DNA from: Gemmatimonadales bacterium
GTDB taxonomy: Bacteria > Gemmatimonadota > Gemmatimonadetes > Gemmatimonadales > GWC2-71-9
Assembly (NCBI GenBank): GCA_037189525.1
Contig: JBBCJC010000001.1
Location: forward strand, 365 to 64,364
Direction of reading: 5' to 3'
DNA: 64,000 nucleotides
Below, one piece after another: positions 21,294 through 30,810 of this stretch (the stretch's first letter is position 1; each line of letters opens with the position of its first letter). The position numbers were made by a program, and so were the translations under genes. The notes beneath the pieces are model-generated. The model searched no databases. It was not told where the DNA came from and saw nothing but the letters and a program-made list of their open reading frames with translations.

Positions 21294-21602
21294 GATTTGC
21301 CAGGCGGGAGACGATGGCAGGACGTGCCAAGTCGCCCGGAGGTTTCAACCGGGCACGGGAGGATAGTTGGCGCAACAATCACCCCCTCGAAAGCCGGCAT
21401 GTCTTGGGCAGGAACGGGCGAACGAACGGGCATGCAAGACAGGGCAGACCATTGGAGCAAGCCCGGAAGAGGGATAGTAGGAGATGGCCCCTGTTCAACC
21501 GTGAAAAACGATCAGCTCCGATGCAAGGCTAGCGGCAATTACGAACAATGTGTAATCTGACATCTACGAGCCAGGACTAGTTAGGCGCATTGGGGAGATA
21601 CC

Positions 21603-22607
21603 GTGACACCAGAGCGGCTCATTTCCGACACATACGCATACTTCCTCGGTCATGGTTACTGGCCAATGGTCCGATATGTCCAGGGCGAGTATGGGCCGCG
21701 CATTAATGTTCGCGCGATAGCTGCTGAGCTAGGCCGCCACACAATCGTGTGCCAAGATGGAGCAGACGGACGATGCTTTCTCACCCTCGAAGGTCTTGCT
21801 CGGATACCTGAAGCAACGACCGACCTGAATAACCTAGCGCGTGCGGTTGCATTTATCGGCCAACAAATCGGGACCGAATCTCCTACTGAAATTGACTCCT
21901 CCCGCATTGGTACCGCCCTCGAGCTTGAGGGTGTTGCCCTAGCGCGGGTGGGCGCTCTACTCTATCAAGTTAGCCGGCTCTGGTCGGGAGGAAGCTGGCC
22001 GCCCGACAACGTAGGCTTCAAGATTACCCCGACGGAGCAGGCACTCTTTTTCAGAGATATACAGTCGTTCAAAGAGCTTGAGGAGGCTCGAGCGCAGGTA
22101 GAGCGTGATGATCGGCGGATCGGAGAGCTCCTTTCAAGGGCATACTCGCGAGCTCATGGAGCCTCGTCACCGTCTGTTGAGGGTGACGGTCCCTCGCGGT
22201 ACACACTTGCCAACTCCCGCTTGGACGTTGTTCTTCAAAGCGATCTTCTCGAACTGGCAACTGTCCGTTCACTTGGCGCGTGGAAATCTGCTGCAATCCT
22301 TGCTGGCACATGCGTCGAGGCACTCCTATTAGACCTCTGCCAGCGTCATCACGACATGTGTTCCGCTAGGTGGGGTGAAAACTGGGCCAGAAACGTCGGC
22401 ACTGACAAGATGGCGCGCTTTGCGAAAGAAAACGGTTGGATAACTACAGATCATCTGGAGCTGATTGGACCGATTCGACGCTGGCGAAACCTTGTGCATC
22501 CATTTAGCGCTGCGACGACTACGGAACCAACGAAGGAGCTTGCGGATGCGCTTATTGCGGTGCTTTACCTTCTAATGGCAGATTTGGTGCGAAGCGAGGC
22601 GGACTGA
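21603..22607 (+). CDS. hypothetical protein, C-terminal helical domain with a possible HEPN-like R-x5-H motif
   Basis: GTG lies 5 nt after GGGGAG. The region is AT-richer. C-terminal AAILAGTCVEALLLDLC ... IGPIRRWRNLVHPFS ... ALIAVLYLLMADL. The R-W-R-N-L-V-H spacing fits Rx4-6H only loosely. Confidence 0.6.
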   Translation: MTPERLISDTYAYFLGHGYWPMVRYVQGEYGPRINVRAIAAELGRHTIVCQDGADGRCFLTLEGLARIPEATTDLNNLARAVAFIGQQIGTESPTEIDSSRIGTALELEGVALARVGALLYQVSRLWSGGSWPPDNVGFKITPTEQALFFRDIQSFKELEEARAQVERDDRRIGELLSRAYSRAHGASSPSVEGDGPSRYTLANSRLDVVLQSDLLELATVRSLGAWKSAAILAGTCVEALLLDLCQRHHDMCSARWGENWARNVGTDKMARFAKENGWITTDHLELIGPIRRWRNLVHPFSAATTTEPTKELADALIAVLYLLMADLVRSEAD

Positions 22608-22787
22608 TGAGCATGCAGCCAAAGATGCGAGATTCCGGCTCCGGCGTCGCGACCGCGCCCGCGCCCGCGTGATAACCAAGGATCGCCCGACGTCCTGGCT
22701 CCCAATCTGCCGCCACAGAGAGGCAAGACCTCGGGTGCCCCAAAGCGACCAACACTCATCATTTCGCCGGCGACCGCATCTTCGGAC

Positions 22788-25058
22788 ATGAACACCTACA
22801 ATTTCGCAACACTAAACGACAAGGAATTCGAATCCCTAGCCATTGATCTCATTTCGGCAGAGCTTGGGACGCGGCTGGAACGGTTCAAAGCCGGCAAGGA
22901 CAAGGGCGTCGACGGGCGTTGGTTCGCCGGGCCAAATGAGGAAGTGGTTGTTCAGTGCAAACACTGGCTCGTCAGCGGGGTCGACCGCCTGATCGCATAC
23001 CTTGCTCAAACTGAGCGGGCGAAGGTCGAACGCCTCGCATGTACCCGGTATCTCCTTATTACGTCGCTGCCCCTTTCACGCAACGACAAGCAGCGCATCA
23101 CTGCCTCTATGGCGCCGCACTTGGCTTCCGCGAGTGATGTTTTCGGCGCCGAGGACCTAAATGACCTTCTAGGCCGCTATCCAGCTGTTGAGCGTCGTCA
23201 CTATAAGTTATGGCTATCGAGCACGAGCACAATCACGCTCCTCCTTAGCAATGCCATTATCGGTCGAAGCCGTGCCGAGCTAGAGCAAATCAACCACGAC
23301 TCCCCACTATTCGTCCGCACGGCTGACTACGACCGCGCTGCCCATCGGCTACAGGAGAAGCGTACTATCGTGCTAACTGGCGAGCCGGGAATTGGCAAAA
23401 CCACGCTCGCTCGCCAACTGGCCCTTGAACACGCCGCAGATGGATTCCAATTAGTTGTCATCGAGGAGAGCATCAGCGAAGCAGAGAGCGTCTACTCGCC
23501 TGACTCAAAGCAACTGTTCTATTTCGACGACTTTCTCGGCCGTACGTTTCTAGAAGCTCTCAAGGCGAAGCAAGACTCGCACCTCTTGCGATTCATCGAG
23601 CGTGTCGGGCGGGACCCAAGGAAGCGGTTCGTCCTCACCTCTCGCACAAACATTCTCAGCCAAGGCACTGGCTTGTCCGATCTATACAGTGACCGGAAAG
23701 TCCTCACGAGCACATACGAACTTCGCGTCAGCGCCGTTTCTGCCGTCGACAGAGCACGTATTCTGTACAACCACATCTGGCACAGCCAACTATCAGCCCC
23801 ATTTGTTGATGAGCTATACGCTCACAAGCGTTATCGCGAAATCGTGAAGCACCGCAACTTCAACCCACGGTTAGTTGCGTTCGTCGTGGACGCCGCCAAA
23901 GTCGCCGATCTCACCACTGAACGCTACTGGCCCTTCGTACGCCAGACATTCTCCAACCCATCTGACGTATGGTCACATTTCTTCTCGGCCCAACTCAGCC
24001 AAGACGACCGCGACCTGACCTTCCTAGTTGTCTTAGCCGGTGGCCGGATTGGCGAACCAGCCCTGCGAGATGCCTTCTTCGCGATTCCATCCGCTCAGCC
24101 AACCAACGAGGGCCTCAACGACAATCGCTTCTGGAAGGCCGTTCAGCACACGTCCGGGTCCGTCTTGAACCGCAGCCTGATCGATGACACGAGGGTCATC
24201 TACGAGCTATACAATCCTTCGATTACGGACTTTGTGCAATCGAGCCTATCCAGATCTAGGCTATGGCTTTACTACTACCGGCAGCTGCGAACTGTTAAGG
24301 CACTTGGGCGTCTTGAACAGATTCGCGAGCAGCCATTCCTGGGATTGACCGAGTATCGACGGATACTTAGGGGTCTGTACGAAGCTGATGCGAAACGTGG
24401 CCATCCGCGAGATGCGTATAGCTTACGACTGCTTCGCCTTATGATGGACGAAGACTCGGGCGACTCTGAGGCACTCGCCGGCCTCCAGAGCGCGTTGAGT
24501 ACTAGTTTAGACATTGGAGACGATGAACACGCAGTAGATTGCCTTCAACTCATCCTCCAGGCCGACGAGCGTATGGACAGAATCGTGCTGTCGGCGCGCG
24601 CCGATGAAGTCGCTAATTACTTCATGGATGGCTCGCTGCCGCTTGACAAGCCGGATGTCGTCAGCAGGCTACTGGAAACACTGAGACGCCTCGACCTCGA
24701 CTCCTCATGCGAGGACCTTCGCCGACGAGTTTTGCGAGACTGGACGAGAGAGGTAGATCAGCACTTGGCGGACAACAACATACTTGCCTCATATTGCTAT
24801 GAAGAGGAACTCGAGGATGCGACGTCAGAGCTTCGTTCGTTTGTAAACAGCCAGTTCGACGACCTCGGCATCGACCTCTCACAAGCCGAAATTGATGCCA
24901 TATGTGGCCGCGTCGACCTAGACGACATTCTAGCCGAAAACCGTGAAATGGCGGCGCGGGCAGATGATCAAGCAGACCGCTGGCGAGAAGCGCGTTCGTC
25001 GTCTGCACTTACTGACGATGCGGCCATTGACGATATTTTTGAGCGCCCCGAGCGATAG
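22788..25058 (+). CDS. Mrr-like restriction-endonuclease domain fused to a P-loop (STAND-like) NTPase with a helical C-terminal region
   Basis: N-terminal FESLAIDLISAELGTRLERFKAGKDKGVDGRW...VVVQCKHW matches the Mrr_cat pattern (GxD...QCK). Walker A is LTGEPGIGKTTLARQLA. Walker B-like is QLFYFDDFLG. About 400 aa of helical C-terminus follows. Confidence 0.75.
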   Translation: MNTYNFATLNDKEFESLAIDLISAELGTRLERFKAGKDKGVDGRWFAGPNEEVVVQCKHWLVSGVDRLIAYLAQTERAKVERLACTRYLLITSLPLSRNDKQRITASMAPHLASASDVFGAEDLNDLLGRYPAVERRHYKLWLSSTSTITLLLSNAIIGRSRAELEQINHDSPLFVRTADYDRAAHRLQEKRTIVLTGEPGIGKTTLARQLALEHAADGFQLVVIEESISEAESVYSPDSKQLFYFDDFLGRTFLEALKAKQDSHLLRFIERVGRDPRKRFVLTSRTNILSQGTGLSDLYSDRKVLTSTYELRVSAVSAVDRARILYNHIWHSQLSAPFVDELYAHKRYREIVKHRNFNPRLVAFVVDAAKVADLTTERYWPFVRQTFSNPSDVWSHFFSAQLSQDDRDLTFLVVLAGGRIGEPALRDAFFAIPSAQPTNEGLNDNRFWKAVQHTSGSVLNRSLIDDTRVIYELYNPSITDFVQSSLSRSRLWLYYYRQLRTVKALGRLEQIREQPFLGLTEYRRILRGLYEADAKRGHPRDAYSLRLLRLMMDEDSGDSEALAGLQSALSTSLDIGDDEHAVDCLQLILQADERMDRIVLSARADEVANYFMDGSLPLDKPDVVSRLLETLRRLDLDSSCEDLRRRVLRDWTREVDQHLADNNILASYCYEEELEDATSELRSFVNSQFDDLGIDLSQAEIDAICGRVDLDDILAENREMAARADDQADRWREARSSSALTDDAAIDDIFERPER

Positions 25059-25205
25059 TCCTACAAGCGACTCTGGATAAAGGCTGGCGCGGGCGCTCGG
25101 ATTCCTAGCCGCGGCCGCAATCAAATACGGTTGGCTTCTGAGAGCTTGTTTACCCACTGACTTCTCAATACGTTTGGAGGCCAAACAATACCCGGACCTC
25201 CCGAA

Positions 25206-26000
25206 ATGCCCCTCAGTCCGTCCGAGGTTGCAAGTCTTCCTGGCCTCGTAGAAGCGGTCCTTGCGATACACCGCACTTTGGAGCCGGGCCGCTTCCTATG
25301 GTACCGTGGAACCCCCTGCCAGCATTTCAGCTTACTCCCCAAGCTAATGCGTGATGGCAAGCCGCCCGAGGCTGTGTTCGAGCGTGAGTTAAGGCTTCTC
25401 ACCCGTTTTCGCCAGCGAGGGATGGCCTACTGGCCTGCCGGTTACCCTCAGAATGACTGGGAGCACCTTTTCGCCATGCAGCATTTCGGCCTTCCAACAC
25501 GCCTCCTCGACTGGTCAGAAAATCTCTTTGTTGCTACGCATTTTGCGCTCGGAGATCCGGCTCACAGGGAGGCTCACGAGGGGCAGTGCAGACCAACCGT
25601 TTGGTGCATCGACCCCATTGCGTGGAACAGATCAACTTCGGCTCTAGCAGACTACGGCGACGCGATTCACGTTTTAACAACTGCTGACGATGAGCTCGAG
25701 GCATACCGTCCGGTTACGAAACACCGACGCTCTCGTTCTCCGATTGCTATGTATGGCGCCCACAACTCAGCCCGCATCGTATCGCAAAAGGGGACCTTCA
25801 TGGTTTGGGGGAACGAGGTCGTTGGCTTAGAAGGTCTTGCGAGTACACAGATCGCTAGTCTATGGAAGATTGAGCTCACGGAGGAACGGAGTGAGCTGGC
25901 AAAATCTCTTCAGCAGCTCGGCTTTGACGAAACGATGGTGTTTCCGGAGTTGCCGTCCCTGGCGGTAGAACTCAGCCGTACGGAAGGGTGGAAGGCGTAG
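25206..26000 (+). CDS. FRG-domain protein
   Basis: LWYRGTPCQHFSLLPKLMR and FAMQHFGLPTRLLDWSENLFVATHFAL match the FRG-domain signature blocks (xRG ... QHyGlPTrLLDwT) from memory. Confidence 0.7.
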   Translation: MPLSPSEVASLPGLVEAVLAIHRTLEPGRFLWYRGTPCQHFSLLPKLMRDGKPPEAVFERELRLLTRFRQRGMAYWPAGYPQNDWEHLFAMQHFGLPTRLLDWSENLFVATHFALGDPAHREAHEGQCRPTVWCIDPIAWNRSTSALADYGDAIHVLTTADDELEAYRPVTKHRRSRSPIAMYGAHNSARIVSQKGTFMVWGNEVVGLEGLASTQIASLWKIELTEERSELAKSLQQLGFDETMVFPELPSLAVELSRTEGWKA

Positions 26001-27131
26001 ATGAAACCCGCAGACCTTGAGAAGGAGATTTCCGAAGCTCGGCGTTCCATCTCGTCCGATGGCTATGCGATGAGCATTGGCGAGATTACGAACCTCTATC
26101 GCGACGGCGAGCTCATAATTCGACCCGAGTTCCAAAGACTCTTCCGATGGACTTCATCGCAGAAATCTCGCCTCGTCGAGAGCCTCCTTCTCGGCATTCC
26201 GCTACCCTCCATCTTTGTGTCCCAGGCCGAGGCGGGGAACTGGGAGCTGGTTGATGGGCTGCAGCGCATCTCGACTATCCTGCAGCTCCAAGGAGAGCTC
26301 AAGGGCCAGTCCGGCGTCGTTTTGCCGGCGTTGGAGTTAGAGGCGACGAAATACCTACCAAGCCTCGCTGGGCGCACGTGGCACAACGACGACAAGGACA
26401 AGAGTCTCACTGAGGCTCAGCGATTGGACGTGAAGCGCTCGAAGATCGACGTCAAGATCATTAAGCGTGAATCATCCCCTGCCACAAAGTTCGACCTATT
26501 CCAAAGGCTGAACAGTTACGGGACTAGCCTGACACCTCAAGAACTCCGCTCCGCAATGCTTGTTGCAGTCTCTGGAGATTTTTTCAGTTGGCTTGAAGGC
26601 TTGACAAAGCTTAAGTCATTCGAGACGTGTGTCACCTTAAGCGAACGCTTGATGGACGAGCGATTCGACCTTGAGCTTGTGGTACGTTTTCTGGTTTTGC
26701 ACGACTGGCCAACCAAGCGTCTCAGTCTCTCAAATCTTAGGGACCTTCCAAAAATCCTTGACGACGAATCTGTCCAGCTCGCAACAAACTTCCCCATGCG
26801 TGCAGATGAGCTCGAGCAATCATTTCGCTCGACCTTCGACTTTATCGCAGCACGTGGCGGAGAGGACGTGTTCAGAAAATGGGACAGGGGACGTAGGATG
26901 TTCGTTGGTCCATTCTTAAGCACAGCCTTTGAGGTCTTTGCCTTGGGTATTGGCTACCAGTTTTCTCAGCGAGCGCAACCGCGAGACGACCTACTCGAGA
27001 TCGTGAAGGAGTTTTGGTCCAAGCCAGAGATGAGCGGAGGTTTCGCGACAGGTAAGTCAACGGAGCGTCGCTTGGTAGATTATATACCTGTGGGTCGGGC
27101 GATAACCGCGAGCGCGCCACATCAAGCATGA
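26001..27131 (+). CDS. DUF262 (ParB-like / GmrSD N-terminal-type) domain protein without a DUF1524 nuclease domain
   Basis: IRPEFQRLFRW and WELVDGLQRISTI match the DUF262 FQR and DGQQR blocks. At 376 aa, no HNH/His-Me C-terminal motif is seen. The ATG directly follows the TAG of the FRG gene (25998-26000). Confidence 0.75.
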   Translation: MKPADLEKEISEARRSISSDGYAMSIGEITNLYRDGELIIRPEFQRLFRWTSSQKSRLVESLLLGIPLPSIFVSQAEAGNWELVDGLQRISTILQLQGELKGQSGVVLPALELEATKYLPSLAGRTWHNDDKDKSLTEAQRLDVKRSKIDVKIIKRESSPATKFDLFQRLNSYGTSLTPQELRSAMLVAVSGDFFSWLEGLTKLKSFETCVTLSERLMDERFDLELVVRFLVLHDWPTKRLSLSNLRDLPKILDDESVQLATNFPMRADELEQSFRSTFDFIAARGGEDVFRKWDRGRRMFVGPFLSTAFEVFALGIGYQFSQRAQPRDDLLEIVKEFWSKPEMSGGFATGKSTERRLVDYIPVGRAITASAPHQA

Positions 27132-27690
27132 CATCGGGATCCCGAGAGAATGGACAAGTCACGCATCTGTGATCGGCTCAGGCTTCAGCTCATTGGGGAT
27201 TCTGCTTGATTCGGCGTCTCGTGGAACTAGCGGCCGTAAGTGCGTGGTCAACCCCGTAAGCCGTGGCGGAGGGACCATGGAACAGACCAGCCACACGGCG
27301 GCTTTGAGTAGCATATGACGCACCCTCGCTAGCACCACGTTATTGTAGATTTCGCCACGGTCGCGGCCCCACTCCGTTTCCGCACGGAGGCCATGTCGCT
27401 TTCTCCAGGACCAGCATCAGGACAACCTTCGCTGGACCGTCGATTCGTCCCCGCATGTGTCCGAATACCTCGATGTGGTTCGGATAGATACGAAGAGGTC
27501 TCGACACATCGTTGACCGAACCTGATTTGGACGTTGATATGCCCTCAATTGCTGGCCATCAAGTTATCTTGGCCCTGCTGCGGGATACATTCGAAACCGA
27601 GGCCAGCTGCTGGATCGGCCTGGTAATCGAGCATGACCGGAGTTCGAATACCTCCTGTCTCAGCATGGCCCCGACAAAGGCGAGACTGCG

Positions 27691-30066: not shown

Positions 30067-30810
30067 GTGACCGGGCCAATACGCACCCCGAAACTGAAGG
30101 GCCGATCAGTGAAGCGCTTTCTCGTTGCGATTCCGACCACTGATGGCGGCGGCGTTGAAGTCCATCCGATGAAAGAGTGGCTTCGCCAGAACCCGTCCGA
30201 AGTACCCCCGGGATCGCACCCGACAACCGACACATCTCACCGACTTCGCGATGCACTTCGGAAAGCCGGCTGGGTTGTACAGGAGAATGAACACGAAGTC
30301 AGACTGGTTCGCACCACGGATTCGTCGACGCTATCCCAAATTTCGCAGGTTTTGGGCGACGAGTCAGAAGACGGGGAGGACACGGACGACGCCGGAGATC
30401 CCAGCTTTGGACTCGAGTATCAGTTGCGTGATTTTCTGGCTCAGAATATCGAGCGCTTCCCCATTGATGGGACAACGCTCAAGCTGTATGTCGACCCGAC
30501 GGGCCGCGACGGCGTGGAATATCCCACCGATGTCGGACCCATCGATATCCTGGCGGTCGACCCCATGGACAACTTCGTCGTCTTTGAGTTGAAGCGTGCA
30601 CGAGTAGCCGACAGGGCCGTAGGACAATTAGCACGGTATATGGGCTGGGTCAAGCACACGATTGGCCGCGATCGCAACGTTAAGGGAGTGATCGTCGCAA
30701 AGACTATTGATAAACGGCTTAGATACGCGGCGACCGTAGTGCCATGCGTCACGCTGCTCGAGTATACCGTTGAGTTCCACCTTCACCCTGCTCACGACAT
30801 TGGAACATAG
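30067..30810 (+). CDS. NucS-like PD-(D/E)xK nuclease-family protein
   Basis: The C-terminal block GPIDILAVDPMDNFVVFELKRARVADRAVGQLARYMGW fits the D...(D/E)xK...QxxxY pattern of the NucS/DUF91 catalytic domain. The local sequence is AT-richer. Start uncertain: GTG 30067, GTG 30109 or ATG 30169. Confidence 0.6.
   Translation: MTGPIRTPKLKGRSVKRFLVAIPTTDGGGVEVHPMKEWLRQNPSEVPPGSHPTTDTSHRLRDALRKAGWVVQENEHEVRLVRTTDSSTLSQISQVLGDESEDGEDTDDAGDPSFGLEYQLRDFLAQNIERFPIDGTTLKLYVDPTGRDGVEYPTDVGPIDILAVDPMDNFVVFELKRARVADRAVGQLARYMGWVKHTIGRDRNVKGVIVAKTIDKRLRYAATVVPCVTLLEYTVEFHLHPAHDIGT

Follow-up and report, generated by a model that had tools for sequence, protein, structure and literature searches.

The gene pair described here lies in a stretch of 64,000 nucleotides (nt) from a Gemmatimonadales bacterium (GenBank assembly GCA_037189525.1, contig JBBCJC010000001.1, positions 365 to 64,364), which is called the window; all coordinates refer to it. 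An FRG-domain gene (25206-26000, + strand) encodes a protein of 264 amino acids (aa) and forms the upstream half of a cassette, in which its product is the proposed effector. It is followed by a DUF262 gene (26001-27131, + strand), whose product of 376 aa is the proposed NTPase and DNA sensor. The TAG stop codon of the FRG gene (25998-26000) stands directly before the ATG of the DUF262 gene at 26001, so that the junction (25998-26003, + strand) has a spacing of 0 nt and points to translational coupling; the original prediction had read the junction in this way, and open reading frames (ORFs) and sequence agree with it. A purine-rich, Shine-Dalgarno-like segment, GGAAGGGTGGAAGG (25982-25995, + strand), is found within the final codons of the FRG gene, which encode a conserved C-terminal EGW[KR], 5 nt before the DUF262 start codon. 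Neither a terminator-like site between the two genes nor a conserved co-oriented ORF after 27131 was found in the window.

The upstream protein matches the Pfam family FRG (PF08867, E 1e-19, aa 31-121) and, when scanned with the hidden Markov models (HMMs) of PADLOC, 14 models of the candidate system PDC-S15, the best of which (PDLC04938, E 2.5e-36) covers aa 22-258 and thus nearly the full length. PADLOC results given here are HMM matches by E-value (scan at E <= 0.1), without PADLOC score thresholds or system rules. Neither Pfam nor the PADLOC HMMs gave a match of the FRG protein to HEPN or PD-T4-2_B. The number of FRG homologues is 709 at E <= 1e-5; the best 120 of these are 57-71% identical and have about 260-265 aa, and the hosts among the matches listed include Ramlibacter, Microcystis, Bdellovibrionales, Bradyrhizobium, Azospirillum, Aeromonas, Mesorhizobium, Deltaproteobacteria and others. 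The family as a whole is very large (20,319 clusters at the 50% identity level, E <= 1e-3), and its best matches are nearly all single-domain proteins of about 255-300 aa.

The signature of the family, YRG (Y33 R34 G35; 25302-25310, + strand), had been quoted from the DNA and is indeed present at aa 33-35, where the AlphaFold2 (AF2) model predicts a beta-strand (aa 32-36). This model is confident, with a predicted local distance difference test score (pLDDT) of 81 and a predicted template modelling score of 0.81. In 106 diverse FRG proteins of 27-50% identity W32, R34, G35, H93, R99, L101, F113, G196 and F198 are invariant, and R49, E61, R71, Q92, T98, D102, E105, N141, N187, R190 and Q194 are conserved in at least 90%. 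From the Aravind laboratory, FRG has been placed in the ADP-ribosyltransferase (ART) superfamily and predicted to be an NADase effector (PMC9503650), and FRG is also described as an ART-like NADase effector in a preprint (bioRxiv 10.1101/2024.07.30.605764). The polar positions that are invariant or nearly so throughout the family (R34, H93, R99, D102, E105, N187, R190 and Q194) could not be placed on an ART active site. A second feature of the protein is an arginine-rich helix (aa 54-75, window about 25365-25430) with the motif ERExRLLTRFRQR, in which R60, R63, R67, R69 and R71 are strongly conserved in close homologues; the helix suggests that FRG binds a polyanion, which would be nucleic acid or a nucleotide diphosphate.

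The downstream protein carries a GmrSD_N/DUF262 domain (PF03235, E 3e-25, aa 28-187), so that the domain identities first proposed for both proteins are correct. The two blocks quoted for it, IRPEFQRLFRW (aa 40-50) and VDGLQRISTI (aa 84-93), are present, and they contain the first two of the three motifs that the Menshen study defines for ParB-DUF262 (QRxxxW, DGxQR and FxxxN; PMC12065111). Among 117 homologues, Q45 and R46 of motif I (QRxxxW, Q45 R46 ... W50; 26133-26150, + strand) are invariant and W50 is conserved in at least 90%; the named residues of motif II (DGxQR, D85 G86 L87 Q88 R89; 26253-26267, + strand), the predicted centre of nucleotide binding and hydrolysis, and of motif III (FxxxN, F167 ... 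N171; 26499-26513, + strand) are all invariant. In the GmrSD-like protein HEC-06, mutation of the Q and R of a DGxQR-type motif abolishes defence (bioRxiv 10.1101/2024.01.29.577857). Of the PADLOC models, NsnA matches over aa 15-343 (E 2.8e-50) and PD-T4-2_A, with a poorer fit, over aa 26-235 (E 3e-23).

The original prediction had also held that the nuclease domain fused to DUF262 in other enzymes is missing here, and this stands. No DUF1524 was found in the protein by Pfam at E <= 0.1, and the AF2 model (pLDDT 87) has an N-domain of the alpha/beta type, followed by a C-terminal half that is helical almost throughout. In a Foldseek search the model gave BrxU as top match (7p9k, probability 0.97), followed by ParB CTPase domains, Noc, KorB and sulfiredoxin, and no nuclease; a nuclease hidden in the C-terminal half is ruled out by Pfam, model and fold search together. 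The protein thus fits an architecture of ParB-DUF262 followed by a helical, ParBDB-like domain. Such proteins are proposed to be DNA-sensing NTPases in the case of Menshen NsnA, a role demonstrated for SspE and GmrSD; wherever a DUF262 system has been characterised, its DUF262 module serves as sensor or regulator (PMC12065111). In a review table, DUF262 domains are listed as (d)NTPases (PMC10952713). A metagenomic homologue of 500 aa (P0134, 67% identity) was considered as a candidate for an FRG-DUF262 fusion of the Rosetta stone type and rejected, as it is a DUF262 protein with an extra C-terminal extension of ~125 aa that has no Pfam match; this extension could be a fused additional domain or an artefact of gene calling.

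Is the coupling of the two genes in the window a local accident? Searching reference genomes with an FRG alignment gave ten loci (L001-L010), nine of them with downstream sequence, and in all nine a DUF262 orthologue follows the FRG gene immediately. The same was found, with GmrSD_N directly downstream, in nine of nine further places reached via individual FRG homologues. Altogether, 18 of 18 testable FRG-first places have DUF262 as the next gene, and they are spread over at least six phyla, with Beta-, Gamma- and Alphaproteobacteria, Cyanobacteria, Bdellovibrionales, Actinomycetota and others; the loci were sampled by pattern and not exhaustively. The adjacency for which a check in other genomes had been proposed is therefore conserved across phyla, and the coupling is real. 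The junctions are similarly tight: a 4-nt overlap of the type ATGA or GTGA (L001, L002, L004, L005, L006), TAATG (L003), a 2-nt gap (L007), and, in gene calls, overlaps of 1 to 4 nt or a 2-nt gap (L100-L104) and an overlap of 13 nt (L099). At most intact junctions an equivalent of GGNTGGA[AG] is located just before the downstream start; in L007 it has the diverged form CGCTGGAGAG. Two of the reference loci, from metagenome-assembled genomes of Acidimicrobiales (L008) and Alphaproteobacteria (L010), have frameshifts in both genes, which may be indel errors of long-read assembly or real, joint decay of the cassette.

The two proteins have also diverged together. The distribution of the DUF262 homologues parallels that of the FRG homologues, with many of the matches to both proteins on contigs of equal length, and the pairwise identities of 17 non-redundant pairs are correlated with r = 0.917 (Mantel p <= 2e-4). 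Even the distant pairs on a Ralstonia solanacearum megaplasmid and a Hymenobacter plasmid, in which FRG is ~36% and DUF262 25% identical to the proteins of the window, have kept the pairing, and their DUF262 proteins remain NsnA-like. FRG proteins that are more distant still (25-32% identity) have no DUF262 partner. A third conserved gene was not found in an all-against-all comparison of the flanking ORFs of L001-L010, and the two genes that precede the pair in the window, for a Mrr_cat-nSTAND3 protein and a protein of 334 aa, had no tblastn match in these loci. They are thus outside the cassette, and a larger operon that includes them is ruled out; chance adjacency is ruled out by the 18 of 18 conservation, the conserved overlaps and the co-divergence. 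Taken together, the adjacency, the missing third gene, the co-divergence and the pairing in the distant branch argue that FRG-DUF262 is a real, autonomous two-gene unit. The genes are co-oriented, translationally coupled and inherited as a unit.

The DUF262 protein was taken as a second starting point. A scan of metagenome contigs gave 80 relatives of 35-67% identity, whose neighbours were classified by profile search and clustering. Ten of these have FRG directly upstream, whereas 52 have a conserved ORF directly downstream, mostly of about 212-247 aa where complete, which encodes a HEPN protein (PF18737 HEPN_MAE_28990 and PF18735 HEPN_RiboL-PSP, E 1e-26 to 1e-35). In a tally of 91 loci HEPN is downstream in 61 and FRG upstream in 19; 11 have neither partner and none has both. 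Nine of the 11 partner-less loci end within about 210 base pairs of DUF262 on at least one unchecked side; among the partner-less loci, L018 has a short FRG fragment at its 5' end and L010 is the frameshifted FRG-first locus mentioned above. FRG and HEPN are mutually exclusive partners of DUF262, never found together in the 91 loci. PD-T4-2 is listed under both DUF262 and PF18735 HEPN in the review table (PMC10952713), and most relatives of the DUF262 protein of the window have this architecture, with FRG filling the partner slot in the clade of the window. In a quick neighbour-joining tree the sub-clade made up of the FRG-linked DUF262 proteins branches from within the HEPN-linked ones, and two HEPN-linked loci, L019 and L023, are interspersed in it; this would mean that the partner was swapped more than once, or that the tree is in error.

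This exclusivity is the main reason for calling FRG the effector. FRG occupies the slot of the HEPN RNase, and the argument does not depend on any assumed biochemistry of FRG; the earlier idea that FRG could supply the effector activity thereby gains independent support. The pairs of DUF262 with RiboL-PSP/MAE_28990 HEPN proteins are abundant in their own right (L019, L023, L026, L034, L038, L089 and about 55 other metagenome loci). Five HEPN components of such sister pairs were scanned and had no PADLOC v2 match at E <= 0.01, so that current HMM sets probably miss DUF262-HEPN systems.

In the window, the pair is part of an island of about 6.2 kb (21400-27600) with a GC content of 0.53-0.59, as compared to about 0.63-0.75 in the flanks. 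It holds four genes, all on the + strand, in the order 334-aa protein, Mrr_cat-nSTAND3, FRG and DUF262. Pfam, NCBIfam, PADLOC and PHROGs gave no match for the first of these ORFs (21603-22607, + strand); a sequence in its C-terminal region, ...IRRWRNLVHP..., appears to resemble a HEPN-type Rx4-6H motif. The second gene, directly upstream of the pair (22788-25058, + strand), encodes a protein of 756 aa with an N-terminal Mrr_cat endonuclease domain and an nSTAND3 NTPase, which matches PADLOC PDC-S73 over its full length (E 6e-233). A second patch of low GC content (about 0.57) contains a gene for a protein of 247 aa with a NucS_C-like PDDEXK nuclease domain (30067-30810, + strand; Pfam E 5e-11, PADLOC PDC-S02 E 2e-32), which may be another acquired defence gene.

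The surroundings of the pair in other genomes are diverse. In L100 a NACHT-like protein and a Mrr nuclease are encoded nearby, and in L101 Cas1 lies at a distance of about 8 kb. The pair adjoins a prophage tape-measure gene and an integrase fragment in L103 and the genes of two tyrosine recombinases in L104; on the Ralstonia solanacearum megaplasmid, IS5 insertion elements are present on both flanks. In L099, housekeeping genes lie upstream and small ORFs without Pfam match downstream. In Bradyrhizobium (L097) the pair directly follows uvrA, and the identical protein is present in 103 collection blocks (24 contigs read). Genes of DNA repair recur as neighbours: besides uvrA in Bradyrhizobium, there is an adjacent UvrD-like helicase in Aeromonas (L094), a UvrD/PDDEXK protein 6 kb away in Ramlibacter (L099) and Lhr 4 kb away in L104. 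Their recurrence may be due to chance, to a hot spot of insertion or to a link in function. FRG proteins outside the pair were seen in two further settings. A distant, partner-less FRG lies 2.6 kb from a CBASS operon on a Serratia IncF plasmid (L013), and the same FRG is present on 53 Klebsiella plasmid records; on a Rhizobium plasmid (L105), a gene for an FRG protein of 460 aa without DUF262 directly follows that of the antiviral reverse transcriptase Drt2.

Most likely, then, the pair is an autonomous, horizontally mobile cassette for defence against phages or mobile elements, built like PD-T4-2 and Menshen. A defence function is plausible, as judged from the low-GC island that it shares with the Mrr-nSTAND3/PDC-S73 gene, from its neighbours elsewhere (IS5, NACHT/Mrr, Cas1, prophage and integrase), from the match of FRG to PDC-S15, and from the distant FRG proteins that adjoin Drt2 and CBASS. 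The division of labour between DUF262 as sensor and FRG as effector is moderately supported. For the DUF262 protein, the sensor role is supported by the matches to NsnA and PD-T4-2_A, the conserved motifs, the fold matches to BrxU and ParB and the role documented for SspE and GmrSD and proposed for NsnA. We regard it as probable, though by no means certain, that the overall architecture is that of a coupled pair in which a DUF262/ParBDB sensor activates an FRG effector that blocks infection.

In such a system the coupled genes would ensure that both proteins are made together. The DUF262/ParBDB protein would bind DNA and, like GmrSD, SspE and Dazbog, probably recognise a feature specific to the DNA of phages, and the binding or hydrolysis of a nucleoside triphosphate (NTP) would serve as a conformational switch. 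The switch would release or activate the FRG effector, and infection would be blocked. If the ART assignment in the literature is correct, the effector would use up NAD+ or modify a target by ADP-ribosylation, which would halt phage replication either directly or through abortive infection. This chemistry, NAD+ depletion or ADP-ribosylation, is our leading guess for FRG and at the same time the weakest step, a doubtful one that is taken from the literature assignment alone. It is tempting to speculate, although we hold this to be only a tentative proposition, that the pair is a distinct and widespread immune system in which a ParB-like, foreign-DNA-sensing NTPase licenses an FRG enzyme with NAD+-consuming, ADP-ribosylating or entirely new chemistry.

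Several observations weigh against this reading. The AF2 model of FRG had no significant Foldseek match in PDB or BFVD, so that the claim of an ART fold was not reproduced, and neither narrow nor diverse FRG HMM profiles found an ART among PDB sequences. FRG had at first been taken as a protein of unknown function: that has to be corrected insofar as the literature does predict an ART-superfamily NADase (PMC9503650), and it holds insofar as the fold searches did not confirm this. We found no experimental characterisation of the FRG family in the literature, and no experimental evidence for defence by the FRG-DUF262 pair or by any FRG protein. The pair has plain housekeeping neighbourhoods in L094, L097 and L102, and in Bradyrhizobium its distribution appears fixed and not patchy. 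Viral contigs did not yield the cassette: IMG/VR had no close relatives, and GenBank phages gave only two weak matches. Finally, we infer only by analogy which of the two proteins senses and which one acts.

The assignment could be the other way round, with FRG as sensor or regulator and DUF262 as an enzyme that depletes (d)NTPs or that clamps or nicks DNA via its ParB-like domain. DUF262 domains are indeed listed as (d)NTPases (PMC10952713) and all nucleotide motifs are intact in the protein of the window, a catalytic fold was not confirmed for FRG, and the arginine-rich helix of FRG (R60, R63, R67, R69, R71) could bind nucleic acid in a sensor. However, the partner in the sister loci, whose slot FRG takes, is a typical effector, DUF262 is sensor or regulator in every characterised DUF262 system (PMC12065111), and FRG proteins are also found by themselves in defence contexts, in the manner of effectors or single-gene systems. 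We therefore consider reversed roles improbable, although they are the best of the alternatives.

Slightly less probable still is an addiction module of the toxin-antitoxin type, in which an FRG toxin and a DUF262 antitoxin stabilise mobile elements or islands without a dedicated antiviral role. A compact operon of two overlapping genes that is mobile across phyla, occurs on plasmids and next to insertion elements and integrases, and is fixed after uvrA in Bradyrhizobium would be in line with it. For a type II toxin-antitoxin system, however, the arrangement is atypical, as the putative antitoxin is the larger protein, is encoded downstream and is enzyme-like with conserved NTPase motifs; moreover, NsnA and PD-T4-2_A, to which it is homologous, come from defence systems that have been validated. 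It should be mentioned that addiction and defence by abortive infection are not mutually exclusive.

That the two genes merely hitch-hike together and have independent functions, FRG as the single-gene PDC-S15 and DUF262 as a separate DNA-binding NTPase, is very unlikely. FRG is modelled by PADLOC as a single-gene candidate and more distant FRG proteins do exist without DUF262, but adjacency in 18 of 18 places with conserved translational overlap, co-divergence with r = 0.917, the strict exclusivity of the FRG and HEPN partners and a pairing that is kept even at 25% DUF262 identity all speak against it. Least credible of all is a role in housekeeping or in DNA repair or modification, for instance as a DndB-like regulator with an accessory enzyme, for which one could cite uvrA (Bradyrhizobium), the UvrD-like helicase (Aeromonas), UvrD/PDDEXK (Ramlibacter) and Lhr (L104) nearby as well as DndB, which is also a ParB/DUF262-type protein (PMC12065111), but against which stand the patchy distribution with 57-71% identity across unrelated phyla, the low-GC island of the window copy, the insertion elements or integrases that flank other copies, and the fact that no modification genes are conserved beside the pair.

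A cassette in which a DUF262 sensor activates an FRG effector would be of interest beyond the window. GmrSD, BrxU, SspE, Menshen, Dazbog and PD-T4-2 all contain DUF262 modules, which are increasingly recognised as general sensors of DNA that is foreign or modified. To our knowledge, the way in which DUF262 sensors are coupled to separately encoded effectors is unexplained for all split systems. FRG-DUF262 is a minimal, highly conserved, widespread and easily cloned split system with a different partner, and its comparison with the HEPN-partnered sisters is a natural experiment on the coupling of sensor and effector. The pair also gives a concrete functional context to the very large FRG family, for which there is a confident predicted structure and no detectable relative among solved structures. 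Should FRG turn out to be an enzyme licensed by DUF262, this would be the first biochemical function for the family, and DUF262 sensors would be interchangeable front-ends for RNase, DNase and NAD+-directed effectors.

Among the known systems that have to be compared, GmrSD, BrxU and SspE share the N-terminal DUF262 NTPase module with its DGxQR-type motif, and BrxU is the best structural match. They differ in that a DUF1524 His-Me nuclease is fused to the module, whereas here it is missing and a possible effector is the separate FRG protein; accordingly, the DUF262 protein of the window is smaller (376 aa) than BrxU (580 aa) and the profiles of SspE (about 750-770 positions). Membership in the GmrSD family is ruled out by the missing DUF1524. 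Dazbog (DzbAB; Millman et al. 2022) is likewise made of two genes, with a DUF262 protein without DUF1524 (PMC12065111, PMC10952713). None of its PADLOC models matched either protein at E <= 0.1, and it is ruled out as well.

The pair had been described as unnamed, with the proviso that it might be listed in databases. No name for it was found in the PADLOC HMM set, where the halves match separately, FRG to PDC-S15 and DUF262 to NsnA and PD-T4-2_A. The Menshen comparative study, in which the DUF262 systems were enumerated, makes no mention of the pair, and no paper that mentions both FRG and DUF262 was found in a literature search. The proviso was nevertheless justified, since half of the cassette is already in a database: FRG is present in PADLOC as a single-gene candidate (PDC-S15), and at present this is the one half that tools for defence annotation would report. 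The FRG protein of the window matches the PDC-S15 HMMs. By definition, PDC-S15 consists of one gene, whereas the subfamily of this protein and that of Ralstonia and Hymenobacter consistently have a coupled DUF262 gene downstream. The best of the PDC-S15 models gives a better fit (7e-53) to the plasmid FRG proteins that have no partner than to the one of the window.

Menshen (NsnABC; Millman et al. 2022; Li et al. 2025) has a DUF262 protein with the same NsnA architecture, the same three motifs and the same proposed sensor role. It consists of three genes, in contrast to the two genes with an upstream partner found here. NsnB, an ABC-type ATPase with AAA_15 and DUF3696, neither flanks the pair in the window nor is directly adjacent to it in L094-L104; NsnC (inPIN plus a toxin effector) is not present in the window, and neither of the two is a conserved neighbour in the ten loci. 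The pair is therefore not a true Menshen.

PD-T4-2 from E. coli ECOR65 (Vassallo et al. 2022), validated against T4 in K-12 and in native ECOR65 (PMC9519451), is besides Menshen the system that the pair most resembles in its workings. It also has two genes, DUF1524 is missing from the DUF262 protein that forms its A component, the PD-T4-2_A model matches the protein of the window (E 3e-23), and relatives of that protein at 35-55% identity have a RiboL-PSP/MAE_28990 HEPN gene immediately downstream. The pair differs in that the partner is FRG and is encoded upstream, whereas the partner in PD-T4-2 is HEPN and is encoded downstream, and in that the NsnA model fits its DUF262 protein better than PD-T4-2_A does; the chemistry of the effector is presumably different. 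A true PD-T4-2 is ruled out, as HEPN partners occur only in the sister loci. The stand-alone DUF262 protein, which the original prediction took to be unusual, is not so: with PD-T4-2, Menshen and Dazbog, split DUF262 systems without DUF1524 are already known (PMC12065111, PMC10952713), and the FRG-DUF262 design is therefore a variant of this principle rather than a new one.

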